This document shows positions 12 through 17,205 of a stretch of DNA of 64,000 bases, piece after piece. A model generated the notes under the pieces. The model saw only the letters and a program-made list of their open reading frames with translations, ran no database searches and was not told the DNA's origin. Origin of the DNA: an uncultured bacterium (GTDB lineage: Bacteria; Patescibacteriota; Microgenomatia; UBA1400; UBA12108); contig CAJAUT010000006.1 of the NCBI GenBank assembly GCA_903945195.1, positions 493 through 64,492 on the forward strand. The letters are read 5' to 3'. A program made the position numbers and the translations under genes. How positions within the stretch are numbered: position 1 is the first letter of the stretch; each line of letters begins with the position of its first letter.

Positions 12-1631
12 GTGGAGAAACAATCCGCTAAAGCTCCTGGCCGTCCACTCTTTAATCAAATGATCGGTAGGCTAGAAAAAGGTGAGGCGAACGGAATAGT
101 CAGTTGGAATCCCGATAGGTTGGCTAGAAATAGTGTGGATGGCGGCAAAATTATCTATCTCCTCGATACCGGGCGTATTGTGGCGTTGAAGTTCCCAACA
201 TTTTGGTTTGAACCAACGCCACAAGGAAAGTTCATGCTCAATATCGCCTTTGGACAAAGCAAATACTATGTGGATTCGCTTGCCGAAAATACCAAAAGAG
301 GACTCCGCCAGAAAGTGAGGCGGGGAGAATTCCCTGGTTGTGCTCCAATCGGCTATATCAACGATGTGAGAAACAAGAGTATTGCTGTAGACCGCAAGCG
401 GAGTGTAATCATCCGTAAGGCTTTCGAGTTGTACGCCCAAGGCAATAGCCGATTGGAGGATATCAGCACTTTTCTGGCGGAGAATGGATTAAACGCACGA
501 GGAGGCAAGCGACTCCACAAAGACAGAATCAATTTTATCCTCCACAACCCGTTCTACTACGGACACTTTAGGTATTTGGGTGAAACATACGAAGGTCATC
601 ACCAGCCAGTCATCACCAAGCAGTTGTTTGATCAGGTGCAGGTGGTACTCTCGGAGCGTGGTCGTCCATACCAAACCCCCACCTATGCCTCCCAAGCCCT
701 CTGTGGACTCCTGCGGTGTGGCACCTGCCAGATGATGATCACTGGCGAGGCCAAAACCAAACACCAAAAGAATGGTAACGAGCACCACTACGTCTACTAT
801 CACTGCACCAGGAAACATAAAACCATCAGGTGCAGTGAGCCACCCGTAGCCGAGGGTGAGTTAGCTCGCCAGTTATCATCCCTGATCAAACAACCTGCTT
901 TATCACCGAGTTGGGCGGAATCTATGCGAAACAAGTTAGCAGAAGATAAGATAGACTCCGCCCAATCGGTTACTGCGTTTGTGTCAGAGACAACCAATAC
1001 TATTCGTGCCATTGATCATAAGCTACAGCGACTGCTCGACGGCTATCTCGACCAACTGATTGACCAGGATATCTACAAAACACAGAAGAATAAGTTGGTC
1101 AGTTCTAAGAAGTCGCTAACTGATCAATTGGCACGCATGACACAAACGCAGACTCGCTGGGTAGAACCGATGCTCAAATGGATAAATCAGGCAGAGAATC
1201 TGCCTGCAGTCGCCGAGTGTGGCACTCTTACACAGGTCAAGAGTGCAGCCAAAGAAATCTTTGGCTCGGACCTATGGCTTTCCGCGAGCGAAGCGAGCGG
1301 GACAGCACAATCCCCCTGGGATTCTGTGATCTCTGCGACCAGTCGGTGCAAAAAAGCTGAAAATTTGCAAAACAGTTGTGCTTGGGTGGGCCCACTGGGA
1401 TTCGGACCCAGGACACCCTACTTAAGAGGCAGGTGCTCTAACCAGCTGAGCTATAGGCCCACTATTAACTTATATACCCCTGATGCATCTTTATTTGAAC
1501 ACTTTCTGCCTTGGATTCAGAAAATAATGTTCGCATTAATGAATCTGAACCAGACTATCAATATCAGGGTTTACAAAAAAGTATTATACGAGAAAAGTTG
1601 GCTAATTAAAATAGCGGTAGTCGTAGACTAA
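12..1631 (+). CDS. Large serine recombinase (5'-truncated at window edge). The ORF reads across the antisense tRNA-Lys, so the true C-terminus is uncertain.
   Basis: Resolvase catalytic-domain tail (GIVSWNPDRLARNSVDG), recombinase domain and a Cys-rich zinc ribbon (CGLLRCGTCQ...YHCTRK). No upstream start within the window. Confidence 0.8.
   Translation: MEKQSAKAPGRPLFNQMIGRLEKGEANGIVSWNPDRLARNSVDGGKIIYLLDTGRIVALKFPTFWFEPTPQGKFMLNIAFGQSKYYVDSLAENTKRGLRQKVRRGEFPGCAPIGYINDVRNKSIAVDRKRSVIIRKAFELYAQGNSRLEDISTFLAENGLNARGGKRLHKDRINFILHNPFYYGHFRYLGETYEGHHQPVITKQLFDQVQVVLSERGRPYQTPTYASQALCGLLRCGTCQMMITGEAKTKHQKNGNEHHYVYYHCTRKHKTIRCSEPPVAEGELARQLSSLIKQPALSPSWAESMRNKLAEDKIDSAQSVTAFVSETTNTIRAIDHKLQRLLDGYLDQLIDQDIYKTQKNKLVSSKKSLTDQLARMTQTQTRWVEPMLKWINQAENLPAVAECGTLTQVKSAAKEIFGSDLWLSASEASGTAQSPWDSVISATSRCKKAENLQNSCAWVGPLGFGPRTPYLRGRCSNQLSYRPTINLYTPDASLFEHFLPWIQKIMFALMNLNQTINIRVYKKVLYEKSWLIKIAVVVD
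1385..1460 (-). tRNA. tRNA-Lys (anticodon CTT)
   Basis: Reverse complement GGGCCTATAGCTCAGCTGGTTAGAGCACCTGCCTCTTAAGTAGGGTGTCCTGGGTCCGAATCCCAGTGGGCCCA folds as a cloverleaf. Acceptor 7 bp, D arm GCTC/GAGC, anticodon stem CCTGC/GTAGG, loop CTCTTAA, T arm CTGGG-TCCGAAT-CCCAG. Confidence 0.75.
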
Positions 1632-6744: not shown

Positions 6745-7761
6745 ATGGTTTTATCAGACGATCTCCTTGCCTTACCCAAAAAAGTTGCCATTTTATACTC
6801 AGACGTCAAGCGCGAGTATTTTTCAAACGAAGAAACCTATCTGACAGAAATGGGTGCAGATATCTACGCCGGAGACGTAGCCAAATATGTGGAAAAGATG
6901 GGGATTGTAGTCACGACTATACCCGGCGATGATCACATGGCCGAGAATCTAGTGAAATTCAATCCCGACATGGCCATCAATTTGATCGACTCTGTTAGAG
7001 GTCAAAGTACCCTTGGTTCATCTGTCCCTGGAGTCCTTGAGATCCTCCATATCCCCTATACAGGAGCAGGGACCCTAGGATGGGCGCTTGGGACCAACAA
7101 ATTCCTCATGTATCAGCTCCTACAAACTTCAGGAGTTCCAGTTCCTACGCACCAGATAGTCTCTAGCTCCACCGACATGATCGATCCTGGTATGCGTTAT
7201 CCACTCTTCCCCAAGCTCAACTACGAACATTCTAGTATCGGCGTAGCTGCAGACAGTATTTGTCACAATGAAAAAGAACTTAGGTCCAAACTTAAAGATC
7301 TGATCACCACCTACAAACAACCAGTGCTAATCGACGAGTTTATCGCGGGTATCGAGGTCACTGCCTCTGTTCTAGACGGTATGAACACCAAAGTGTATAT
7401 GGTCCAGCGCAAAGTAGGTGAGGGGATAGAAGACGTCGTGACGTTCGACAAAAAATGGAAAGATTATCTGGATATGACCTACATCAAATATGAGGATCCG
7501 ATTCTCAAAGGTTACGTTAAACAAGCTTTTGATATTCTCAAGATGTCTGATTATGCCCGCATCGACATCCGCATCGACGCAGCAGGCAGGTATTATTTCA
7601 TCGATCCAAATGCCAATCCATTCTTTGGTCCACCCAAAGAAACCCACGCCACCTACAGCATGATTCTCGATATGTACGGTGTCACTTTTGAAGAAACCTT
7701 AAAACGTTTATTCCTCAACACACTTCAAGATGCGCGTATAGAACAAAACGGCTGGCACTAA
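6745..7761 (+). CDS. Divergent D-Ala-D-Ala-ligase-like ATP-grasp ligase (paralog 2)
   Basis: LEILHIPYTGAGTLG and IDIRIDAAGRYYFIDPNANP. Start overlaps the stop of the upstream paralog. Confidence 0.6.
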   Translation: MVLSDDLLALPKKVAILYSDVKREYFSNEETYLTEMGADIYAGDVAKYVEKMGIVVTTIPGDDHMAENLVKFNPDMAINLIDSVRGQSTLGSSVPGVLEILHIPYTGAGTLGWALGTNKFLMYQLLQTSGVPVPTHQIVSSSTDMIDPGMRYPLFPKLNYEHSSIGVAADSICHNEKELRSKLKDLITTYKQPVLIDEFIAGIEVTASVLDGMNTKVYMVQRKVGEGIEDVVTFDKKWKDYLDMTYIKYEDPILKGYVKQAFDILKMSDYARIDIRIDAAGRYYFIDPNANPFFGPPKETHATYSMILDMYGVTFEETLKRLFLNTLQDARIEQNGWH

Positions 7762-8045
7762 GTCAAATCAAATCTCAGAGTCTTACCCACAGCCACAGCA
7801 ATCTTGGACATAAAATCAAATGACGGGTTAGAAGACCCACCTTCAAATCGTGAGATTACAGCTTGTTTCGTACCAATTTTCTTGGCAAGTTGTGACTGAG
7901 TCATCTTTTTGGCCAAACGCGCATCAATCATCTTGCATATCATGTCAAACTTGGGTTGTGATGCTGCATACATCGCTCTAAGACCTGGTCTACCCGCCAA
8001 AGCTTTCTTTTTAAATTCGTCATAACTATCGATAAATGGTTTCAT
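7758..8045 (-). CDS. XRE-family HTH antitoxin (HigA-like)
   Basis: HTH stretch MTQSQLAKKIGTKQAVISRFE. Immediately downstream of a RelE/HigB-like toxin gene. Confidence 0.55.
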   Translation of the reverse strand: MKPFIDSYDEFKKKALAGRPGLRAMYAASQPKFDMICKMIDARLAKKMTQSQLAKKIGTKQAVISRFEGGSSNPSFDFMSKIAVAVGKTLRFDLT

Positions 8046-8066
8046 AACACATTTATAATCTATAAG

Positions 8067-8399
8067 TTATAATCTGTCAAGCCTTTCCTCTGCAAGTTTC
8101 AACTCTTTGCTGGGTAGTTTATTAGTTTTCTTCTTAAATGAATTAAGCAACACAAATTGCGAGTTATGCCATGTATACAATAATCGAATCGGAACTTTAC
8201 CTGAAGTTCGTAGTTCGTATATGGTGCTACTAATTCTCTTAGCATATGGCAAAGATAACTTCGGACCATATACTTTAAGCAAGTCCATAACTCGCATTAC
8301 TTTATTAAAAGTTGCATCATCCAAAGAATAAATAAATTCTTCAACTGGCTTATCGTCGCGACTATTTGCATAAAAACCCAAAATCCATGACATAACCAA
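8067..8399 (-). CDS. RelE/ParE-superfamily toxin (HigB/Gp49-like)
   Basis: ~110-aa protein upstream of and co-oriented with the HTH antitoxin. Typical toxin-first HigBA arrangement. Confidence 0.5.
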   Translation of the reverse strand: MVMSWILGFYANSRDDKPVEEFIYSLDDATFNKVMRVMDLLKVYGPKLSLPYAKRISSTIYELRTSGKVPIRLLYTWHNSQFVLLNSFKKKTNKLPSKELKLAEERLDRL

Positions 8400-8449: not shown

Positions 8450-8523
8450 TGCGGGATCGTCTAATGGTAGGACTCGGGACTTTGAATCCCGCTATCTAGG
8501 TTCGAACCCTAGTCCCGCAACCA
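8450..8523 (+). tRNA. tRNA-Gln (anticodon TTG)
   Basis: TGCGGGA-TC-GTC-TAATGGTAG-GAC-T-CGGGA-CTTTGAA-TCCCG-CTAT-CTAGG-TTCGAAC-CCTAG-TCCCGCA-A-CCA. Anticodon TTG. Confidence 0.8.
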
Positions 8524-10098
8524 CATAGGATTAGTAGGAATAAGATCAGGTCTTTTGCTCAATATATCAGCATATTTAGTAAGTTCGAACGTTTTCTTTT
8601 CTTTTATTGACCAATCTGAGACTTTTGAAAAAACATAATACGAATTTTTCAGCTGTATAGATACTATTTTATCTTTTAGTAAAAAGTTCGAACCCAAGTC
8701 TCTGACCACTCTACCTTTACCCATATCATCAGCTTTCTTAAACTTCTGACTTGCTGTTAATGCAAACTCCATCTCGTCTAGCAATTCTCGGTAACTACGC
8801 CTAACAGGTAGAGCATCTTCTGTACTTTTGAGTATGGTTATTTGATCAGCAATCTTCTTTTTGGCTGGCTTATACTCAGCATCAGTAATTGTCCCATCTA
8901 GCAACTTCTCAAGTAAAAGGGAAGATCTTTTCTCTAGTACAGCAATATCTTTTGATTTATCAAGAACACTGACAGATTCTTGCTTATTTTCTTCAGTCTC
9001 TAAATATGATGACCATTTACTAGCCCAGGATAAGAATTCTTTAGGAATACGAATACTTTTTACAACCTCCTCTAATTGTTCGTTAATCACCGACTTTGAT
9101 ATAGGAGGTTGTACACATGATTGTTGTTGTGACTTATGAGAACAGCGGTAGTAATCGTACGGAACGGTAGTATTAGAGCTTTTGTTAAATTTAAATTTGC
9201 GTGACCCTGAAACCATGCAAGAACAGTCTGCACAAAAGAATAACCCTCTGTAAGGAAAATCATGCTTGCTTCTGAGTGATTTGTGATTAGGATTAATTTT
9301 GGTTTGCACTAAATCAAAAACTTCCTTTGTGACCATTGGTTTGTGCTTGCCATGATACCAATTACCAGACCTCTTAGGCCACTCGAATTCACCATAAAAG
9401 AAAGGATTAGAGATCATCCTGTAGAACCCTGACCTACAAATCAACTCATCTTTGCCACCAGCATCTTTCCATGCTCTACAACCCTCCTCATAGGCCTCAA
9501 CAGGTCGTTTACCCTGCAAGATGGAGTACCAGCAGGACTTTAGATATGGAAAGCGTTTAGTGTCAGGCACAATAGTGCGATAACCCATAAGTTTTTGAGG
9601 CGTATTTTTGTATCCCTCAGGTACTGGAGCAGGTAGCCATCCCATTTTGGCTTTAGCAGTCATCCCACGTTTCACATCAACACTTTTGTTATCATTCTCG
9701 AGTTTAGCCTGACCCCACTCAAAACCTAGAAAGAATCTATCAGTTGGAGAAGCCACATAAGAACGACTAGGAGTAACAATGGTTTGCAGTAACCCCTGAT
9801 CCATTAGGTAGATCATTGCACCTGAATCAACGGAGTTACGAGATAAACGGTTAGGATGCCAGACCAAGATACCGTTAATCTTCTTCTGACCAATCAGGCT
9901 AATCATCTCGTTAAAAGCAGGTCTACCTGGTTTTTTGGCAGATTTAGATTCCTTAAATGTTGCCACAAGGGTAATTCCTAGCTTACTTGCGAGTTTCTTA
10001 ATCTCATCTTCTTGAGCAGGAAGCGATAAGGCTTGGCGATCATCGCTTTCTGAGGATTTACGAAAATAAGCACAGTATTTAATTTCCATGGCTTGCAT
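8509..10098 (-). CDS. Large serine recombinase (integrase)
   Basis: N-terminal resolvase domain (YFRKSSESDDRQALSLPAQ...ILVWHPNRLSRN), recombinase domain and Cys-rich zinc-ribbon region. 3' end overlaps tRNA-Gln. Confidence 0.85.
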   Translation of the reverse strand: MQAMEIKYCAYFRKSSESDDRQALSLPAQEDEIKKLASKLGITLVATFKESKSAKKPGRPAFNEMISLIGQKKINGILVWHPNRLSRNSVDSGAMIYLMDQGLLQTIVTPSRSYVASPTDRFFLGFEWGQAKLENDNKSVDVKRGMTAKAKMGWLPAPVPEGYKNTPQKLMGYRTIVPDTKRFPYLKSCWYSILQGKRPVEAYEEGCRAWKDAGGKDELICRSGFYRMISNPFFYGEFEWPKRSGNWYHGKHKPMVTKEVFDLVQTKINPNHKSLRSKHDFPYRGLFFCADCSCMVSGSRKFKFNKSSNTTVPYDYYRCSHKSQQQSCVQPPISKSVINEQLEEVVKSIRIPKEFLSWASKWSSYLETEENKQESVSVLDKSKDIAVLEKRSSLLLEKLLDGTITDAEYKPAKKKIADQITILKSTEDALPVRRSYRELLDEMEFALTASQKFKKADDMGKGRVVRDLGSNFLLKDKIVSIQLKNSYYVFSKVSDWSIKEKKTFELTKYADILSKRPDLIPTNPMWLRD

Positions 10099-10099
10099 T

Positions 10100-10296
10100 A
10101 TACCGCCCTCCTAAAATTGTACTTCTCATGCATCGTTTAATGACTGTTAGTAAAGAGTCATTAAACGGGGTCGCAAAAAACATTCTGGTTATGATGTTTT
10201 TCGTCCTATGGCCGAAAAACATCAATTTAGATGATTTTGGGCTTACCCTTGTCAAGGTCGCTTCGCTCCCTTGACAACAATTCCAACCCCTAGCCG
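10100..10296. promoter_or_regulatory. Non-coding region dense in inverted repeats (possible recombinase operator, attP or replication origin)
   Basis: CGTTTAATGACT/AGTCATTAAACG (12-bp IR), GTTTTTCG/CGAAAAAC (8-bp IR) and TTGTCAAGG/CCTTGACAA (9-bp IR), all read directly. Confidence 0.3.
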
Positions 10297-11406
10297 TTAC
10301 CATGTCGCCTCCTCCTCAACCGCAGGCACAGGGAGCAAAGCCTCCTGCGTAGGCTTTTTGAGTAACTCATAACCTAGAGCAAAAGGAGCATTTACTTTGT
10401 TAATGACTAGCTCACTAGGAATGGAAAGGGAAGTAATAGGACTATCCTTCATAACTACCCCAACACCTGACTCAGCAATCATCTTCAGATTACGAGTAAT
10501 TGTGCTGTTGTTGTAGATCATCTTCAAATTCTGCTTTTGCGCAGGACTACCCACGTAGAGCTGGTGAAACAAAAACAGATTTTTGGCTTTAACTTCACCA
10601 TGAACAACAGAAAGTAAATCAAAAATGGTTTTAGGAGAATCAATCCTAATCTCGCTGGAGCGAATGAGTTTAGAAAATAGGGAATTGAGAATGGAGTAGA
10701 CATAGTCTCGATTTTCTAGATCAGCTAAATGGAAACCTCCTCGCTTATCCTTAAAAAGATCATTGAGTTTGGCCTTACGAAGTTGCATCTCAAACCTAAG
10801 TACACCTTCACTTTCAATCTTCATGGCGTCAGCATATTCGCGGTTATACTCTCGCAAATCTCGAAAACCCTTATCAACATACTCAGGACTTTTGAGGTAA
10901 AAGATGCCTGAGTAGGCCTTGCCACGATAAACGATAGAGGTATCGTAATTAGCAGTCATTTTACGTGGGTAGCTATACCCTCGCAGACTATTGAGCAAAG
11001 ATTGAGCTAACTCCTGAGTAGGTAGCTTCCATGCGTAGCAAAGATCTAATCGTTGTAAAACCCAATCATTGACCGGGACGTACTTTACATGAAACCAATC
11101 ACCCATCTCGAGCCTAATCTCATTTAATAAAGCCATCAGATTATCGGGGTAGTACAGATAGACGTTCTGACCATAAACGAGTTTAGGAATGGAAAATTCA
11201 GCATATAGGTCATGGCGAGGAAGCTTCTCGTTGTAAACCATGAACAAGTGAATCGTAAAACTATTATGATATACGAATGTCAGGTTGCACTGTTTACAAA
11301 CAACCTTTCCCTTAAAATCATGTTTTGTAGTAACTACCTGGTGCAAACTCATATCATCAAAATCAACGTGAGTTATGGGAATTTTTAGCTTAATCGTGTC
11401 AATCAT
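10297..11406 (-). CDS. Hypothetical protein, possibly a rolling-circle replication initiator (Rep_trans-like)
   Basis: A Y-x-K then LRFEMQLR stretch recalls the Rep_trans family. Sits in the integrated element next to the IR-rich region. Weak. Confidence 0.3.
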   Translation of the reverse strand: MIDTIKLKIPITHVDFDDMSLHQVVTTKHDFKGKVVCKQCNLTFVYHNSFTIHLFMVYNEKLPRHDLYAEFSIPKLVYGQNVYLYYPDNLMALLNEIRLEMGDWFHVKYVPVNDWVLQRLDLCYAWKLPTQELAQSLLNSLRGYSYPRKMTANYDTSIVYRGKAYSGIFYLKSPEYVDKGFRDLREYNREYADAMKIESEGVLRFEMQLRKAKLNDLFKDKRGGFHLADLENRDYVYSILNSLFSKLIRSSEIRIDSPKTIFDLLSVVHGEVKAKNLFLFHQLYVGSPAQKQNLKMIYNNSTITRNLKMIAESGVGVVMKDSPITSLSIPSELVINKVNAPFALGYELLKKPTQEALLPVPAVEEEATW

Positions 11407-11650
11407 GTGTCTCCTCAGCAGTAAATCTGTAGAGGTCTAGGAGGTACACGGCTAACTTTCTCGCCTCAATCAGGGTTAGAAGTACACCAAACCGCTTTTG
11501 ATAATGAGTCTGAAACTCAATGACTGCCGAATCAGGTAAATTGCCAGCAGAATACCCACGATTACTCGCGTTAGCTAAATTCTTTGTCTGGGAATTACTT
11601 TCTTGAAAATTACACGACAAAGCTGGCGACTTATCGTCCCCATGACCCAT
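11399..11650 (-). CDS. Hypothetical small protein
   Basis: ORF only. Co-oriented with the element genes. Confidence 0.25.
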   Translation of the reverse strand: MGHGDDKSPALSCNFQESNSQTKNLANASNRGYSAGNLPDSAVIEFQTHYQKRFGVLLTLIEARKLAVYLLDLYRFTAEETHD

Positions 11651-11801
11651 ATGATTTCATACAATGGATACCGCTTGTCTAGCACCGCCTAACCAACCGC
11701 CCAATTGGTAAGGTACTTTTACACCTATAGTGTCAAAAATGCAATTAAAATCACAAATTATAAAAAACTTAATATACTGAAACAAAATTCATGGTGAAAA
11801 A

Positions 11802-12128
11802 TCAGTAAGCCTTAAGCTTAAGCCATATTTCCACTAAACCAAGGACTAAGGAACAAAACGCTGTAAAAACACCAACCACAACAGTGATTATTAGGATTTT
11901 ATTTTGCTTTTTTAAAAGATCTAATTGCTGTTGAAAATTATTTTTAGATTCTTGTCGATCCCACTCTGGCTGCATTTGCTCGGATAAGGTCGAAACAGGG
12001 AATTTCCAATCTTGATACAATCTCTCAATAACATGACCTAAACTAAAAATCGCTCTTTCGATGGAGCCAATTTTATTTAACAATCGTTCATCAATAGACT
12101 CAGGCATATCAGATATCCTAAGCATCAA
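11802..12128 (-). CDS. Hypothetical membrane-anchored protein
   Basis: C-terminal hydrophobic helix. Confidence 0.3.
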   Translation of the reverse strand: MMLRISDMPESIDERLLNKIGSIERAIFSLGHVIERLYQDWKFPVSTLSEQMQPEWDRQESKNNFQQQLDLLKKQNKILIITVVVGVFTAFCSLVLGLVEIWLKLKAY

Positions 12129-12444
12129 AAATAGTTATACCGAAAAATGATAAGAAGCGGGAAAAAAGTGATTTACTGCCAGATAAATGTTTAAAAACAT
12201 AAGCATCAGGAGAATTGATTGCATAAGATAGATCCATAAGCAGATCAGAACGATTCTTCAGGGTATCAGAACTAGGAACCTTAACTATTCCTTTTAACTT
12301 TTCTTCTAGATCTCTCCGAATTTCTTCATTATCTGCTAGGATACTCAGAAAAACTGCTGAACCTGTTAATTGCTCAAAATAATCATCAAATACCTTTTGT
12401 TCTTTAGGAATGAAAACTAGTTTTTGTTTTTTTAGGTAATCCAT
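12118..12444 (-). CDS. Hypothetical protein. The internal Met start is preferred so the gene does not overlap the zinc-ribbon ORF; the track ORF is 12118-12576.
   Basis: ORF only. Start choice is an inference. Confidence 0.3.
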   Translation of the reverse strand: MDYLKKQKLVFIPKEQKVFDDYFEQLTGSAVFLSILADNEEIRRDLEEKLKGIVKVPSSDTLKNRSDLLMDLSYAINSPDAYVFKHLSGSKSLFSRFLSFFGITIFDA

Positions 12445-12445
12445 G

Positions 12446-12697
12446 TTACTTAGTTTTTTCTGAGTTAGGCTTAGAAAAATAATAAAAACTATTACAAACG
12501 TTGCATTCCCAATATTCCAAAAGCTTCTCATTAGAAGGTAAAGGTATCCAAAAAATATGCCAGGTACTCCTACCAATTTTTTTTATAAAGGGAGTAATCT
12601 CCTTACAATTATCACAATGAGCCTTCAAAACCTCATCCTCTGGTGCTACCTCACCGCTCATTGCCGTACCAGTACCGTTAATTAATGAAAAATACAT
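12446..12697 (-). CDS. Small zinc-ribbon protein
   Basis: Two CxxC pairs (CDNCKE...CNVCNS). Confidence 0.35.
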   Translation of the reverse strand: MYFSLINGTGTAMSGEVAPEDEVLKAHCDNCKEITPFIKKIGRSTWHIFWIPLPSNEKLLEYWECNVCNSFYYFSKPNSEKTK

Positions 12698-12721
12698 ACA
12701 ACAAGTATAACAGTAATTATA

Positions 12722-12973
12722 TTACTTGAGTAAACTACCCCAAACAAAAAACCAAACTATGCCTAAGACCATTAAAGCTAATATTAAATATAAAAGTACT
12801 TTAAATATTTTGTGAAAAACTAAATAAGCATTTAGTAAACCATATTTTTTTAATAAATTCTCCCACTTATCAATAAAATTCTTTTTGACAATCGGTCCAA
12901 AATAACTTATCAAATAATACAAAACACCAACAAGACCAAGAAAAGACGCTTTTGCAAGAAGATCATTAGTCAT
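12722..12973 (-). CDS. Small membrane protein (two predicted TM helices)
   Basis: Hydrophobic segments. Confidence 0.3.
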   Translation of the reverse strand: MTNDLLAKASFLGLVGVLYYLISYFGPIVKKNFIDKWENLLKKYGLLNAYLVFHKIFKVLLYLILALMVLGIVWFFVWGSLLK

Positions 12974-13116
12974 AAATAAATTATACGCTAATTAGTCTCA
13001 AGATCCAAAAGCATAAGAAGAAGACGGAAAACTATAGGGATGGTTCGCAATCTCGTCCCATATCCGCAACACCTCTGGAGGCGGTTTAGGTCGTAAGAAC
13101 CTGATAAACTTAAATA

Positions 13117-13482
13117 ATGACCGAAACAACCCCAATTCCATTAGACGCAGTAATCTATGAACGTTTTAAAGAATTTGGGGCCATGCAAGCCTACGAATAT
13201 CTTGATGGTGATAAAGCTGCAAGAGAAGTTCAAAAGAAATCGTTCTTGAGTGGGGAAATTGAAAATCCCAAATTAGATTACCCCAAAATTGACCTATCTT
13301 TACTAGAGAGTAGAGAGAATCAACTACTAGATCTCAAAGCTGATATTTTAAAAGATGAACCAAATGAAACCGTAAAGCAAGTATATCGTTGGAAAATAAA
13401 CGAAAAAATTGCAGAAATAGGGTTAAGTGACATTTTGCGTTGGTTTTTCACTCCTGTTTCCGTTTCAGTAGTAAAGCAATAA
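13117..13482 (+). CDS. Hypothetical protein
   Basis: ORF only. Confidence 0.25.
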   Translation: MTETTPIPLDAVIYERFKEFGAMQAYEYLDGDKAAREVQKKSFLSGEIENPKLDYPKIDLSLLESRENQLLDLKADILKDEPNETVKQVYRWKINEKIAEIGLSDILRWFFTPVSVSVVKQ

Positions 13483-14380
13483 TTTGTCGCCTTTGAAGTA
13501 GTTTTGTGCCGCGATGATGATCTATTAGTCGTTGGATCTGGGCATTGATTCCACCCTCAATTCGGTTAGAGGTGTTTGGTATTTGTGGATAGCGGAGATA
13601 CTGAAAAAGATTGGGGAGAGCATTCTTTAAATGCGAGTGAGAGGCATGGAGGTGACCGTGAGTGTAGTGCCACTTGCGACGCCCCGTGGGAGTTAGTTTT
13701 TCTTGATAGGTTCTCTCTTTGAGGAATGCCCGATACTGCTGATACCAAGATTTATAGGTGAGCAACCAAGTTCTCAAATCATCCTTGGATTTCACTAGGA
13801 CGATTTGATTAACAAGGTATTTAAGTTTTCTAGCTGCCTCTGTTTCTGGGTGTTTGGTGAGGAGCAAGTTAATTTGATGGATCACGTGGAACTGGCACCT
13901 TTGGATGATCACTCCAGGGTAGCGGAGCTTGATTGCCTTAAGCATTCCTTTCTGTCCATCACATATAACTGCACGGGGAAAGGCACTGATACTATTCAAA
14001 AAAGTCAGCCAGGTGGAGGAGTTTTCTGTATAAGTGAAGTGCCAGCCAACTACTTGATTGAGTGGATTCTGAGCAATGAGAACGGTTGCACCATACTCAA
14101 CATAGTATCCATCAATAATGAAGATGTCGCTTTGGATGAGGTGACAACTTGGAGTGATCTCCTCATCCCTAAAAGGGGTAAACCACCTATCTAGAGTGCG
14201 ACGAGTGACTCTGTACGCCACCCCAAAGTCTGACAAAGTTAACTTGCTGAGGAGCCATTTCTGATACAGCTGACGGTGATATTTCTGAGTGAGATCGACT
14301 CTTAACCTCGTTTCATTAGACCCACAACGAGGACATCGGTAGTGTGCCTTTCCACTTCTATGGCTTCCCCATTTCTGCAT
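13448..14380 (-). CDS. IS1595/IS1-like DDE transposase with an N-terminal zinc ribbon
   Basis: CPRCGS zinc ribbon and a C-terminal TSNRIEGGINAQIQRL...HHRG motif typical of IS1595-family transposases. Confidence 0.6.
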   Translation of the reverse strand: MQKWGSHRSGKAHYRCPRCGSNETRLRVDLTQKYHRQLYQKWLLSKLTLSDFGVAYRVTRRTLDRWFTPFRDEEITPSCHLIQSDIFIIDGYYVEYGATVLIAQNPLNQVVGWHFTYTENSSTWLTFLNSISAFPRAVICDGQKGMLKAIKLRYPGVIIQRCQFHVIHQINLLLTKHPETEAARKLKYLVNQIVLVKSKDDLRTWLLTYKSWYQQYRAFLKERTYQEKLTPTGRRKWHYTHGHLHASHSHLKNALPNLFQYLRYPQIPNTSNRIEGGINAQIQRLIDHHRGTKLLQRRQIIALLLKRKQE

Positions 14381-14438
14381 CGGTTTTCGACACTTGGAAC
14401 ACCATTTTTTTTGCCATATTAATCTCCAGGTAGCTTAA

Positions 14439-15548
14439 TTGTTTCTGATTATATCCTATCCATCCGTCAAATCACTCGATTTTACCAACGCAAAATGTCA
14501 CTTAACCCCAGAAATACGCATGCTTCATGCATCAGAGTCAGGTGACATGAGGAAATTTAAAAAGTATTCCGAATTTGTATACGGGAAACCATCAGAAGAT
14601 ATTTTCGGATATACCGTTAACTCAATTCGATCCGAAGCAACATTAAATCTCGCAAGTGATGACGAAACAATTCAGGCAGCAGCAAGAGAGTTATTGGAAA
14701 TACTACCAAGCGAATTACCTCATCATGAAATAAGTTTAATACCAAATGATGAGGCAATAGCAAGCATGAGACAGGCTACGCTTGAATCTGCAGGAGACTT
14801 AATAGAGCTCCCCGAAGGCACTACTTTCGATGCTTCGAGTATTAAGACTACTTTTGACAGTGCTCTAGAAACTCTCAAGGCTGATGGATGGCAAGTGGTA
14901 ATAGATACAAGTAGTAAGTCTGGGATTAGTGTCGACCAAGAAAAACAACAAGTTAAAATACCTGAAGGAAGAACGTTGACTCCCAATAAGTTGCAAACAC
15001 TGATAGTACATGAAATAGGAACGCACGTAAAACGCAGGGTAACTGGGGAACGATCCAAACTTAAGCTTTTGGGATTAGGCCTCGATAGGTATGAGACTGG
15101 CGAGGAAGGGGTAGCAACAGCAAGAGAACAAGCTATGTCAGGGAAAGTAGATGACTTTGCAGGATTAGACGGTCACCTAGCAATTGGCCTTGCGTACGGT
15201 TTAGATGGCACACCAAGAAACTTTAGAGAAGTGTACGAAGTACTGAAAAAATATTACAAATTAACCAGTCTAGTCGGAAAAGAAGCTAAGGAAACTGTTG
15301 AAGACAAATCTTCAGATAAAGCATGGAATCGTTGCGTGCGTACGTTTAGAGGAAGTGACTCAAAAACAAAAGGGGCATGTTTCACAAAGGACATCGTCTA
15401 TAGAGAAGGAAATATTGGTACTTGGAATGTTATACGAAACAACCCACAAGAAATGGCGAGATTTGATGTAGGTAAGTACGATCCCAGTAACCCTAGACAT
15501 ATTTGGATACTGGAAACTTTAGGCATTGAAGACGCTGAAATTGTATAA
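14439..15548 (+). CDS. DUF1704/QEGLA-motif family protein with an HExxH (putative zinc metallopeptidase). The true start is possibly an internal Met at ~14520.
   Basis: HEIGTH motif and a GEEGVAT stretch resembling the QEGLA motif. Confidence 0.4.
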   Translation: MFLIISYPSVKSLDFTNAKCHLTPEIRMLHASESGDMRKFKKYSEFVYGKPSEDIFGYTVNSIRSEATLNLASDDETIQAAARELLEILPSELPHHEISLIPNDEAIASMRQATLESAGDLIELPEGTTFDASSIKTTFDSALETLKADGWQVVIDTSSKSGISVDQEKQQVKIPEGRTLTPNKLQTLIVHEIGTHVKRRVTGERSKLKLLGLGLDRYETGEEGVATAREQAMSGKVDDFAGLDGHLAIGLAYGLDGTPRNFREVYEVLKKYYKLTSLVGKEAKETVEDKSSDKAWNRCVRTFRGSDSKTKGACFTKDIVYREGNIGTWNVIRNNPQEMARFDVGKYDPSNPRHIWILETLGIEDAEIV

Positions 15549-15560
15549 CCGATTTTTATA

Positions 15561-15591
15561 CCAGGTTCTAACATAGTCCGTTACCGCCAAC
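15561..15591. repeat. Intergenic repeat module A (GGTTCTAACATAGTCCGTTACCGCCAAC), copy 1 of 3
   Basis: Near-identical copies at 16365-16397 and 17092-17121. Each lies just after a stop codon. Confidence 0.8.
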
Positions 15592-15599
15592 ATACAAAA

Positions 15600-15630
15600 A
15601 GAGACGTACATATCCGTCTTTTTTTGTATA
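15600..15630 (+). terminator. Rho-independent terminator (AGACG-tacatatc-CGTCT then a T-run)
   Basis: 5-bp GC-containing stem followed by TTTTTTT, read directly. Confidence 0.5.
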
Positions 15631-15740
15631 ATGTAGATATAGTTTCGAACCGTAGGTTAGAATCACACATCAAGTCACGAAGTGACCTGAGAAATGTATC
15701 CAGAAACGAAGTATTCTGGGATACCTAGCTCGGCAACTTT

Positions 15741-15790
15741 ACTGGATCAAAATAGATCATGTTTCAATTCGTCAGAACCTGATAAAATCA
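15741..15790 (+). promoter_or_regulatory. Repeated promoter module B, ending in an extended -10 box TGATAAAAT 6 nt before the ATG (leaderless or short-leader transcript). Second copy at 16401-16450.
   Basis: Two ~50-bp near-identical copies, each directly upstream of a HAD paralog. TGATAAAAT at 15780-15788 and 16440-16448. Confidence 0.5.
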
Positions 15791-15794
15791 GTTT

Positions 15795-16364
15795 ATGATA
15801 AATGGAGTAATTTTTGATATTGGTGGCGTATTAATAGATGATCCACAATTTAAATCATTCTGGGGAGAAAGCAAAAAGGGAGCTGAACTAAGGGAACTAT
15901 TTGGTACGGGAAAAATATCACGAGAAGGTTTTGTTAAGGATGGAGCACATATTATTGGAGTATCTCCAGATATTTTTTTAACTCAATATATCGAGGCATA
16001 TTCTCAAATGAAAAGAATCCCCCAGACAATGGAGGTATTCAATAGCATCAATAAACAAAAATATATATTTTCCGACACAAATCCAATTCATTTAGAAATA
16101 TGTCAGAAATTATTCCCTGAAATATTTGAAAGTAGTAGTAAACAATTCTTATCTTATGAAATGAAACTAAGAAAGAATAGTAATAAAGCATTTCAACTAA
16201 TGCTCAACAATCTCCCATATAAAGCACATGAGCTAATATTTATTGATAATAATCCTAATTACATAGAAACAGCAAAATCCCTAGGTCTAAACACAATATT
16301 ATTTAATGCAGAATGCAATTTAACAAAATCCCTACTGCAAATTGATCAAAATATGTTTGATTGA
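15795..16364 (+). CDS. HAD-superfamily hydrolase
   Basis: Motif I FDIGGVL near the N-terminus. Confidence 0.5.
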   Translation: MINGVIFDIGGVLIDDPQFKSFWGESKKGAELRELFGTGKISREGFVKDGAHIIGVSPDIFLTQYIEAYSQMKRIPQTMEVFNSINKQKYIFSDTNPIHLEICQKLFPEIFESSSKQFLSYEMKLRKNSNKAFQLMLNNLPYKAHELIFIDNNPNYIETAKSLGLNTILFNAECNLTKSLLQIDQNMFD

Positions 16365-16397
16365 TACCAGTTTCTAACATAGTCCGTTACCGCCAAC
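16365..16397. repeat. Intergenic repeat module A, copy 2
   Basis: See copy 1. Confidence 0.8.
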
Positions 16398-16454
16398 TTC
16401 ACTAGATCAAAATAGATCATGTTTCAATTCGTCAGAACCTGATAAAATACCCTC

Positions 16455-17084
16455 ATGAAAAAATATCAACTATATCTGTACGATTGGGATGGTTGTATTG
16501 CGAAAACGCTAAATATTTGGCTTGACGCGTACAAAAAATTATTCAGCGAATATGATGTTCAGATTTCGGAACAAACAATCATCACTAAGGTTTTTGGAGA
16601 TTGGGAAGGACCGAAGAAAGTTGGAGTCAAAGATAACGAGCAATTTACCAAAGAATTACTTAACCTAGTAAACACAGGCTTTCAGACACTAGAACTTTAC
16701 CCTAAAGCTAAAGAAACAATAGTTAAATTAAAGGAGCTTGGAGTAAAGATAGCTATAGTTAGCAGCTCCAAGTGGGACTCTATCAAACCTGCTTTCGAGA
16801 AAAACAACTTATCAAAGTTAGTGGACACAGTAATATCTGCAGAATCCGTTACTCATCACAAACCTGATCCTGAATCAATATATAAAGCGATGAAAGAGTG
16901 CGGAATTACTAACAAAGAAGACGTAGTTATAATAGGGGACTCTAACAAAGATGTTGTGTGTGGTGCTAACGCAAATATTGATACGATATTATTTTACCCA
17001 CCTGAAAATCACAAATTCTACGACGAACAATACTTTAAACCATCAACATTTGTGATAACAGACCATTTGAGTATTGTGGAATAG
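16455..17084 (+). CDS. HAD-superfamily phosphatase (beta-PGM/phosphoglycolate-phosphatase-like)
   Basis: YLYDWDGCIAKT motif I, SSS motif II, K...GDSNKD motifs III/IV. Confidence 0.55.
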   Translation: MKKYQLYLYDWDGCIAKTLNIWLDAYKKLFSEYDVQISEQTIITKVFGDWEGPKKVGVKDNEQFTKELLNLVNTGFQTLELYPKAKETIVKLKELGVKIAIVSSSKWDSIKPAFEKNNLSKLVDTVISAESVTHHKPDPESIYKAMKECGITNKEDVVIIGDSNKDVVCGANANIDTILFYPPENHKFYDEQYFKPSTFVITDHLSIVE

Positions 17085-17091
17085 TTTGATA

Positions 17092-17121
17092 ATAGGTTCT
17101 AACATAGTCCGTTACCGCCAA
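17092..17121. repeat. Intergenic repeat module A, copy 3
   Basis: See copy 1. Confidence 0.8.
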
Positions 17122-17205
17122 CAGAAACATCAATGTTAAATACCCAAAATATTTGTATTTGCTATAATTTCTCAGATATTACTCACAATTAAAAAGGAGT
17201 AACAA

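Follow-up and report, generated by a model that had tools for sequence, protein, structure and literature searches.

Evidence for an integrative element with a large serine recombinase and a gpII-type replication initiator at a tRNA-Gln gene of a Patescibacteria genome, and for a cassette array beside it

What has settled at the 3′ end of a tRNA-Gln gene in a bacterium of the candidate phyla radiation (CPR, Patescibacteria), where does the insertion end, and how would it move? The question is raised by 64,000 nucleotides of contig CAJAUT010000006.1 (the window, below), in which an earlier note had described an element of about 4.6 kb at tRNA-Gln with a serine recombinase, a block of inverted repeats and a possible rolling-circle initiator. 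This description holds. The insertion measures 4,549 bp, its ends are fixed by comparison with related loci, and we consider it probable that it is an integrated element encoding its own means of integration, a large serine recombinase (LSR), together with a rolling-circle replication initiator (Rep). Among the points to be corrected is its isolation: the element opens a tandem array of cassettes that share its site. Coordinates are collected in Table 1.

The attachment site at the outer end (attR) had been placed at about 13042-13075, at a repeat of the tRNA end. When the repeat is aligned locally with the 3′ part of the tRNA, the score is 16; unrelated places in the window reach 20-25. The repeat alone is therefore not above chance, and its significance had to come from related elements. 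The window was compared with L002, L018, L021, L004, L005 and other related loci, to which the L-numbers refer; pairwise alignment for tRNA-end repeats, locus by locus, was noisy, and a small profile of the sites worked. A site with the consensus AGTTCGYRATCTSRTCCCAKATCCGCAAC stands at the distal ends of the elements in L018, L002, L021 and L004, and five elements in all are closed by it. The five carry differing cargo, the identity of their Reps to that of the window runs from more than 90% down to 47%, and in all of them the similarity between elements ends immediately past GCAAC. Equivalent units are 4,232 bp (L021), 4,210 bp (L002) and 4,175 bp (L018) long.

The junctions tell the same position. 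The window reads ...ATATCCGCAAC and then ACCTCTGGAGGCGG. In L041, a Joint Genome Institute (JGI) contig that matches the DNA on the right side of the element at 90-96% identity, ...GTTACCGCCAAC is followed by ACCTCTGGAGGCGG; the right flank of the window is there attached to another unit, and the break falls exactly after CAAC (13070). Comparison of related tRNA-Gln loci for an empty site gave two that have neither Rep nor LSR and are joined at CAAC to flanks of the array: in L042, the tRNA (...GGCAAC) runs into the sequence that follows the window's site at 15591, and in L040, the tRNA (...CGCAAC) runs into the sequence that follows the site at 16397. Given the conservation of the site and these three junctions, the recombination point lies at or within GCAAC (8517-8521 and 13066-13070), and the distal end of the element is the site at 13042-13070. 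The proposed attR is thus upheld by the conserved site in five elements and the L041 breakpoint, and related elements do carry the terminal site beside the shared block.

What kind of site is it? The earlier note had called it a degenerate copy of the tRNA end, and this reading did not survive. The left site, attL, consists of the tRNA through GCAAC followed by element DNA (junctions compared in L018, L005, L008, L040 and L042). The tRNA arm is GGTTCGAACCCTAGTCC-CGCAAC and the end of the element is GGTTCGCAATCTCGTCC-CATATC-CGCAAC; counted by eye, 13 of the 17 positions of the outer block match; the inner CGCAAC is identical, and the element has six additional bases separating the blocks. From GGTTC to CAAC, tRNA-Gln measures 23 nt and the element end 29 nt. 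The ends of the neighbouring cassettes are built alike, at 28 nt, the net gain being five bases. In serine integrases, the motif for the zinc-ribbon domain (ZD) lies 5 bp nearer the centre in attB than in attP (PMC3783163). Since motif spacing wider by 5-6 bp follows this attP/attB rule, the site is of attP type, and we read it as a half-site kept by selection and not as a decaying duplicate of the tRNA, with only GCAAC in common with attL. The shift of about 5 bp is seen on the left arm only. The element contributes no more than the last two bases (CA) of the tRNA, which explains why no long direct repeat is present.

The recombinase has the three domains expected of an LSR, with scores above the family cut-offs for the catalytic resolvase domain (PF00239 Resolvase, 69.6 against 23.3 bits), the recombinase domain (PF07508 Recombinase, 22.9 against 21.1 bits) and the zinc ribbon (PF13408 Zn_ribbon_recom, 30.9 against 25.3 bits). 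It matches the integrase profile phrog_95 at 1.4e-56, and its matches to models of CcrA/B/C and XisF are weak and partial, those to Ccr falling far below the family cut-offs. As had been noticed earlier, the gene overlaps the 3′ end of the tRNA: its stop and last four codons are antisense to 8509-8523, 15 nt inside the tRNA. The same 3′ end of the gene forms the P′ arm of the att site. When the circle is closed in silico, the open reading frame (ORF) crosses attP and encodes 549 rather than 529 residues, a gain of 20 codons. The predicted attP junctions are ...TCCCATATCCGCAAC joined to CACATAGGATTAG... and ...CTCGTCCCATATCCGCAAC joined to CACATAGGATTAGTAGG..., and the predicted element-free junction is ...CCCTAGTCCCGCAAC joined to ACCTCTGGAGGCGG....

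Is this arrangement peculiar to the window? At least 14 related loci, and by one count more than 15, have Rep, a short gap and an LSR whose 3′ end overlaps the 3′ end of tRNA-Gln(UUG/CUG) or tRNA-Ser, in the lineages Woesebacteria, Saccharibacteria, WWE3 and Roizmanbacteria. A Rep 97% identical to that of the window occurs in a metagenome-assembled genome of Candidatus Woesebacteria, and one member of the Rep cluster is named "Microgenomates group bacterium". As far as sampled, the family is restricted to CPR/Patescibacteria. It is absent from IMG/VR, as scanned with a Rep profile, and from GenBank phages, and the sole match among plasmids is one 3.5-kb Rivularia plasmid. In a rough neighbour-joining tree of Reps, those linked to tRNA-Gln form one clade and those linked to tRNA-Ser several, with the Reps of inoviruses in between. 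A literature search found no published description of the family.

The comparison also bears on movement. The core of the element is 91-95% identical to that of L018, which sits at tRNA-Gln(CUG), a gene with another acceptor and T-arm, amid entirely different flanks. With L021, the core is 88-94% identical and the syntenic host flanks only 78-82%; being more similar than the flanks, the element is taken to be younger than the divergence of its hosts. Co-divergence with the host, drawn from a single high-scoring segment of 83% identity with L021, was rejected when splitting the segment gave these two ranges.

Two side observations concern other recombinases and their targets. The LSR overlaps tRNA-Ser in the tRNA-Ser-targeting relatives L013 (11351-11571) and L017 (13020-13273). 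In both, a further tRNA-Ser, of the unusual anticodon ACT, is called in tandem with a normal one; in L013 it overlaps the end of the LSR, and in L017 it adjoins the LSR. Integration may have created it, as a hybrid or a duplicate. In the window itself, a second LSR, 31% identical to the first, lies at 12-1631 on the plus strand, and its ORF runs antisense through the whole of tRNA-Lys(CUU) (1383-1461, minus strand). Probably a further element that targets a tRNA ends here and runs off the left edge of the window. The pair of LSR and tRNA-Lys is also present in L021.

The second gene that defines the element is that of the initiator. A Y-x-K / LRFE pattern in the 369-aa ORF had reminded the earlier note of Rep_trans (PF02486). 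The pattern is there, as FY170LK and GVLRFE, and the family is another: a profile search gave no Rep_trans match at E<=0.1, and Foldseek gave no solved Rep_trans-like structure. The protein belongs to PF05144, described as Phage_CRI, "Replication-associated protein G2P N-terminal", with 35.7 bits (cut-off 21.7; E 9.8e-9) over profile positions 1-221 of 232, and it matches phrog_702 at 6e-15. The motifs MIDT, EFSxPK, RxDxCY, FYLK and LRxE are invariant in 16 Rep homologues, and Tyr170 in FYLK is, by analogy, a candidate for the catalytic tyrosine, so that the ORF has both a Rep-family match and a conserved tyrosine. An AlphaFold model (pLDDT 86, pTM 0.81) finds as its best viral match, by Foldseek against BFVD, a G2P of the Inoviridae (E 4.5e-11, TM 0.56). 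A sequence search of the PDB and Foldseek against solved structures gave nothing significant.

Between the two genes lies a non-coding block of 198 bp in which three inverted repeats had been noticed. All three are present, as hairpins at 10134-10167, 10192-10224 and 10249-10277, and a long-range pairing of GGGGTYGG with CCRACCCC encloses them. Six elements, with Rep identities as low as 43%, retain the hairpins and the enclosing pairing; the stems hardly vary, the loop of the third hairpin, TACTAACAG, is invariant, and compensatory changes are few. It is tempting to propose, by analogy with the intergenic region of phage Ff, that the block would serve as a rolling-circle origin that combines double-strand and single-strand origins.

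Upstream of Rep, the conserved part soon ends. From the tRNA, the core extends through the LSR, the hairpin block and Rep to an 83-aa ORF, which overlaps the Rep start, and to a promoter-like segment that forms its upstream limit. The similarity of DNA ends at 11733 with L018 and at 11751 with L021, and between 11729 and 11751 over L018-L020, L002 and L021. A conserved block of 39 nt at 11693-11730 was tried as the end of the element and rejected, being the promoter-like segment and hairpin at the edge of the core, with no att site. The structure model of the 83-aa protein has a disordered N-terminus and a helical hairpin; the protein has only 5 homologues in a database of 5.8 billion proteins, and it is a candidate for a regulator or a recombination directionality factor.

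Beyond the core lies cargo. The earlier note had counted five small ORFs, among them a Cx2C...Cx2C protein and three membrane proteins; the ORFs and the cysteine protein stand, two of the membrane proteins are robust, and the third is one only if TTG at 12576 is a start codon. The small ORFs gave no usable match in Pfam, PHROGs, NCBIfam or PADLOC. Scans of every ORF of 8509-12973 with Pfam, PHROGs and NCBIfam found no Zot or other virion family, in keeping with the earlier impression of an element without capsid genes; the pI/Zot ATPase and coat proteins of an inovirus (Tubulavirales) prophage are thus missing. Elsewhere, the cargo is a 268-aa ORF (L002, L018), a 2-hydroxyacid dehydrogenase (L021), or DUF4238 with a 214-aa ORF (L004, L005). 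The 268-aa ORFs of L002 (2664-3470) and L018 (8825-9631) are 92.5% identical and the Reps of these elements only about 70%, which suggests a recent exchange of cargo modules between the two. Defence-type genes, at most putative cargo, are neighbours of two further relatives: in L009 (4289-8440), an N6/N4 methyltransferase and a DEAD/ResIII helicase lie beside a relative of the element, and in L046 (570-1524), two ThsB-TIR genes lie beside a related Rep that has no adjoining LSR.

How, then, would the element work? As predicted from the sequence, the LSR would recombine attP with the 3′-terminal GCAAC of tRNA-Gln, which would act as attB. The attP would comprise three parts: a P arm (today the site at 13042-13070), GCAAC as its core, and a P′ arm from the last codons of the recombinase gene. 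Integration would replace only the final CA and leave the tRNA intact, and the motifs of the P arm, 5-6 bp farther apart than those of the tRNA arm, would allow the integrase to tell attP from attB. After excision, the circle of 4.5 kb would be copied by rolling-circle replication, the gpII-type Rep presumably nicking at the hairpin block between rep and the recombinase gene. The distal third of the element is a swappable module of cargo. Since the element has no morphogenesis or coat genes, its spread would have to use uptake of the circle or a helper filamentous phage, one akin to the free inoviruses of 5.7-5.9 kb whose Reps are sisters of its own.

Several points weigh against this scheme. 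The right half-sites (P′ and B′) show no common motif and, by eye, no convincing dyad symmetry with the left arm; right arms of this kind are unusual for serine integrases, and the position of the crossover inside GCAAC is therefore not fixed. No recombination directionality factor was identified, and the predicted attP junction had 0 exact matches in the JGI metagenome contigs. The pairs of the hairpin block that show covariation are only 3 of 47, and the hairpins could equally be protein-binding or regulatory sites; the block has no similarity to the intergenic regions of free inoviruses. Finally, the candidate tyrosine leans on a presumed analogy, the Rep motifs being what we take to be those of Ff gpII, with the active tyrosine in (A/F)YLK.

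The transfer step invites an alternative, that the element is a satellite of CPR filamentous phages, composed of Rep, an origin and packaging region and an integrase, which a helper inovirus packages and exports with its own Zot and coat proteins, as happens with TLCphi and RS1 in Vibrio. We regard this as a tentative proposal, and on balance an unlikely one, that would refine the transfer step of an LSR-driven rolling-circle element rather than contradict it. The proposal draws on relatives of the Rep. Reps about 34% identical to that of the window occur in genomes of 5.7-5.9 kb with Zot, small coat-like proteins and a protein of about 450 aa; L036/L037 (5,783 nt) and L045 (5,859 nt) have the order Zot, Rep, an ORF of about 100 aa, 54-aa coat-like proteins and the protein of about 450 aa. 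For one of the inovirus genomes there are two circularly permuted assemblies, with coverage of 245-455x and a terminal overlap of 55 nt. These high-coverage genomes are complete small circular inoviruses. Among Reps of non-integrative origin, theirs come nearest to that of the element, which is itself of the inovirus G2P/Cri family.

The size of the element is close to that of TLCphi of Vibrio cholerae (about 4.7 kb), all its genes lie on one strand, and its two small membrane proteins could be coat-like. TLCphi is a satellite that needs its Cri endonuclease for rolling-circle replication (PMC6744903), and Cri is the name behind Phage_CRI, the Pfam family PF05144. Gene content alone, a Cri-family Rep and no morphogenesis genes, fits a TLCphi-like satellite. 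On the other hand, no packaging signal was identified, and outside Rep the element has no sequence in common with the free inoviruses, whether in its small ORFs or in its hairpin block. Other members of the family do not keep the small membrane ORFs, and what relatives carry as cargo has a metabolic or defence-like character (2-hydroxyacid dehydrogenase, a restriction-modification system, DUF4238). The absence of the family from IMG/VR and GenBank phages, and the low identity of the Reps of the candidate helpers, also speak against a packaged satellite.

Could the element instead be an inovirus prophage in decay, an immobile remnant that has lost its morphogenesis and coat genes? An inovirus-type Rep without Zot would fit such a remnant, as would the recombinase of L008, which appears split into ORFs of 422 and 87 aa, and the lack of a circular form in the JGI contigs. 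Nevertheless, many divergent lineages, with tRNAs of two kinds as targets, have this minimal architecture with LSR and Rep intact and of full length, and decay in each of them separately would not have led to one and the same arrangement; a core that is nearly identical is found at another tRNA-Gln gene amid other flanks, similarity is higher in the element than in the host flanks, and the terminal att half-site is conserved. We therefore find decay improbable. Least probable of all, and close to dismissed, is a mobile unit of only the core of about 3.2 kb, from the tRNA to about 11733, with the small ORFs and the repeat at 13042-13070 unrelated to it: similarity to L018-L020, L002 and L021 does end at 11729-11751, and the tRNA-like repeat is not significant alone, but in every related element a stretch particular to it separates the core from a copy of the 29-nt terminal site, the 268-aa cargo ORF common to L002 and L018 lies inside their units, no terminal site stands beside 11733, and the L041 breakpoint is at 13070.

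The self-encoded LSR/rolling-circle element does not stand alone at this tRNA. Directly beyond attR lie three cassettes, each with one plus-strand gene and each ending in (ACC)AGGTTCTAACATAGTCCGTTACCGCCAAC; cassette ends are represented by GGTTCTAACATAGTCCGTTACCGCCAAC. The exact 26-mer of the cassette end occurs 3 times in the window, against 0 expected by chance, and it recurs between different genes in L021/L022 and seven stretches from JGI (L038-L044). The cassettes of relatives are units of 446-1,790 bp with one or two genes, all on the strand of the tRNA. Gene content and order vary among related genomes, and one cassette can hold different positions (L021 3000-8700, L040-L043). The array resembles the outcome of repeated site-specific insertion at tRNA-Gln, of which the Rep-LSR element would be the newest unit and the sole one that encodes a recombinase.

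In their left parts, the cassettes hold more T-arm-like fragments, such as ATATAGTTTCGAACCGTAG, and, shortly before the start codons, a repeated ...AGAACCTGATAAAAT that resembles an extended -10 promoter (window 15637-15655, 13090-13110, 15770-15788 and 16430-16448, and cassette left ends of L021). Several of the left ends can be grouped under a few types of sequence that recur.

The first cassette has been entered by a transposon. The earlier note had seen one immediately outside attR and called it IS1595-like. A transposon is indeed present, of the IS256 family (IS1249-like); its near end lies within the next gene, at a distance of 349 bp from attR. It has perfect terminal inverted repeats of 25 bp and a target site duplication of 8 bp, CAGAAATA, the length typical of IS256, and it occurs once in the window. 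Its excision in silico restores a DUF1704/MATCAP-like ORF of 445 aa (13117-15548), a gene that is uninterrupted in L041. A transposase of the same family flanks the element in L002/L003, and the transposase was considered as a part of the element; its own inverted repeats and duplication, inside a neighbouring gene, led us to reject this.

Do the tRNA-Gln end, a serine integrase and sites of about 30 nt that mimic the tRNA arm together make an integron-like gene-capture system in CPR? This seems possible, although we would put its chances clearly below even. Under such a system, cassette circles without a recombinase would bear the attP-type site, and the resident or a related LSR would insert and reshuffle them at CAAC in trans; the predicted junction of a cassette circle is ...GTTACCGCCAAC joined to the left end of the same cassette. 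The rolling-circle element would be the autonomous driver, and the captured genes would be such as HAD hydrolases, a carboxypeptidase-like protein or a kinase. An integron proper it is not, as no tyrosine recombinase is found in 8-18 kb and the ends are tRNA-arm mimics of about 30 nt with no attC. Arrays of staphylococcal cassette chromosome (SCC) and pseudo-SCC elements at rlmH, and integron arrays, likewise hold recombinase-less cassettes in tandem at one chromosomal site on which a site-specific recombinase acts. In contrast to these, the present array has no IntI and no attC, its cassettes are 0.45-1.8 kb long, and they end in a tRNA mimic of about 30 nt.

Which known systems come near the element itself? 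The phages phiRSM1 and phiRSM3 of Ralstonia solanacearum also join a filamentous-phage replication module to a serine recombinase at a tRNA 3′ end, that of tRNA-Ser. They are reportedly complete phages, with morphogenesis and coat genes, and their recombinase is said to be a resolvase-like serine recombinase. The element differs in its 529-aa LSR with Recombinase and Zn-ribbon domains, in having no virion genes, in its CPR host and in its swappable cargo. One paper cites phiRSM as the sole case of this kind known at the time and describes integration into tRNA genes by serine recombinases as rare (PMC3218068). TLCphi/RS1 is likewise small and integrative, with a Cri initiator, few small ORFs and no morphogenesis genes (PMC6744903); TLCphi integrates at dif through the XerCD of its host, whereas the element encodes its own LSR and targets tRNA-Gln.

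The integrases of A118/LI, Bxb1 and phiC31 have the same set of domains, and the outer motif of their attP lies about 5 bp farther from the crossover (PMC3783163). Unlike them, the element targets the 3′ end of a tRNA and not a protein-coding gene, its left half-site alone shows recognisable conservation, and attP overlaps the 3′ end of the integrase ORF. The tycheposons of Prochlorococcus share a tRNA-adjoining integrase, a replication module and variable cargo, and their tandem units at one tRNA push older ones outward, with tRNA-like fragments between them (bioRxiv 10.1101/2020.12.28.424599). They differ in having mostly tyrosine integrases and genes for primase, helicase and polymerase, and in being much larger; the sites of the element are attP-type mimics and not tRNA duplicates. 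Actinomycete integrative and conjugative elements (AICEs) such as pSAM2, 9-24 kb in size, carry RepSA initiators, which are phiX174/pC194-like, and tra genes, whereas the element has a gpII-type Rep. The two have in common integration at tRNA 3′ ends and rolling-circle replication after excision, and in some AICEs, among them a group from Mycobacterium at tRNA-Leu, the recombinase is of the serine type (PMC3218068). No single precedent unites an LSR, a gpII-type Rep, a tRNA-end target, the absence of virion genes, swappable cargo and a CPR host.

On the other side of the tRNA-Gln gene, directly upstream of it, a toxin-antitoxin-type pair, HigB-like (Gp49) and HTH_3, lies at 7758-8399. The pair is missing at the same place in L002, and in L021 only the gene with the helix-turn-helix (HTH) was called.

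Table 1. Positions in the window of the tRNA-Gln gene, the integrated element with its genes and sites, and the adjoining cassettes (aa, amino acids; RBS, ribosome-binding site; TM, transmembrane segment; IS, insertion sequence).
Feature	Position	Strand	Basis or remark
tRNA-Gln(UUG)	8450-8523	+	ARAGORN and Rfam, 63 bits; supplies attB-type left arm (T-arm, acceptor strand)
Integrated element	8522-13070	minus (all seven genes)	4,549 bp, from tRNA CAAC to terminal-site CAAC
LSR, integrase, 529 aa	8509-10098	minus	Pfam, phrog_95
Non-coding block with three hairpins, candidate origin, LSR promoter and RBS	10099-10296	minus	Six-element alignment, consensus fold
Rep, rolling-circle replication initiator, Phage_CRI/G2P (gpII) family, 369 aa	10297-11406	minus	PF05144, phrog_702
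Conserved 83-aa ORF overlapping Rep start	11399-11650	minus	Upstream of Rep in L002, L018, L021, L005, L008, L017
Promoter-like segment (TTGATT/TTGCAT, 17 nt, TAAAAG), then short hairpin	11651-11735	minus	Five-element alignment
Variable cargo module, four small ORFs	11802-12973	minus	ORF calls
101-aa ORF, C-terminal TM	11802-12107	minus	
108-aa ORF	12118-12444	minus	
83-aa Cx2C...Cx2C protein	12446-12697	minus	Zn_ribbon_15 below threshold, E 9e-4
83-aa protein, two TM	12722-12973	minus	
attR, attP-type left half-site (P arm) ending in GCAAC core	13042-13070	+	GGTTCGCAATCTCGTCCCATATCCGCAAC, conserved in five elements
Tandem array of three cassettes, outside the element	13071-17122	+	Exact 26-mer repeats, junction swaps
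Cassette 1, DUF1704/MATCAP-like gene	13071-15591	+	End site 15560-15591
IS256-family (IS1249-like) IS, 1,089 bp	13420-14508	minus	NF033544 6e-65, NF048019 3.5e-41, PF00872
Cassette 2, HAD hydrolase	15592-16397	+	End site 16366-16397
Cassette 3, HAD hydrolase	16398-17122	+	End site 17093-17122

CPR/Patescibacteria have tiny genomes, for which very few mobile elements have been described, and here is a compact, delimited family of them in at least five candidate classes. The family shows how genes move in CPR, and it links chromosomal islands to small filamentous phages. A whole clade of it integrates in tRNA genes, and its readable attP and attB arms offer natural test cases for the recognition of sites and possibly new integrases with defined short targets. 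The cassette arrays, in turn, are a concrete and testable case of tRNA-based gene capture by a serine recombinase. If the capture system is real, it would be a cassette array run by a serine and not a tyrosine recombinase, in organisms whose gene exchange is largely unknown.

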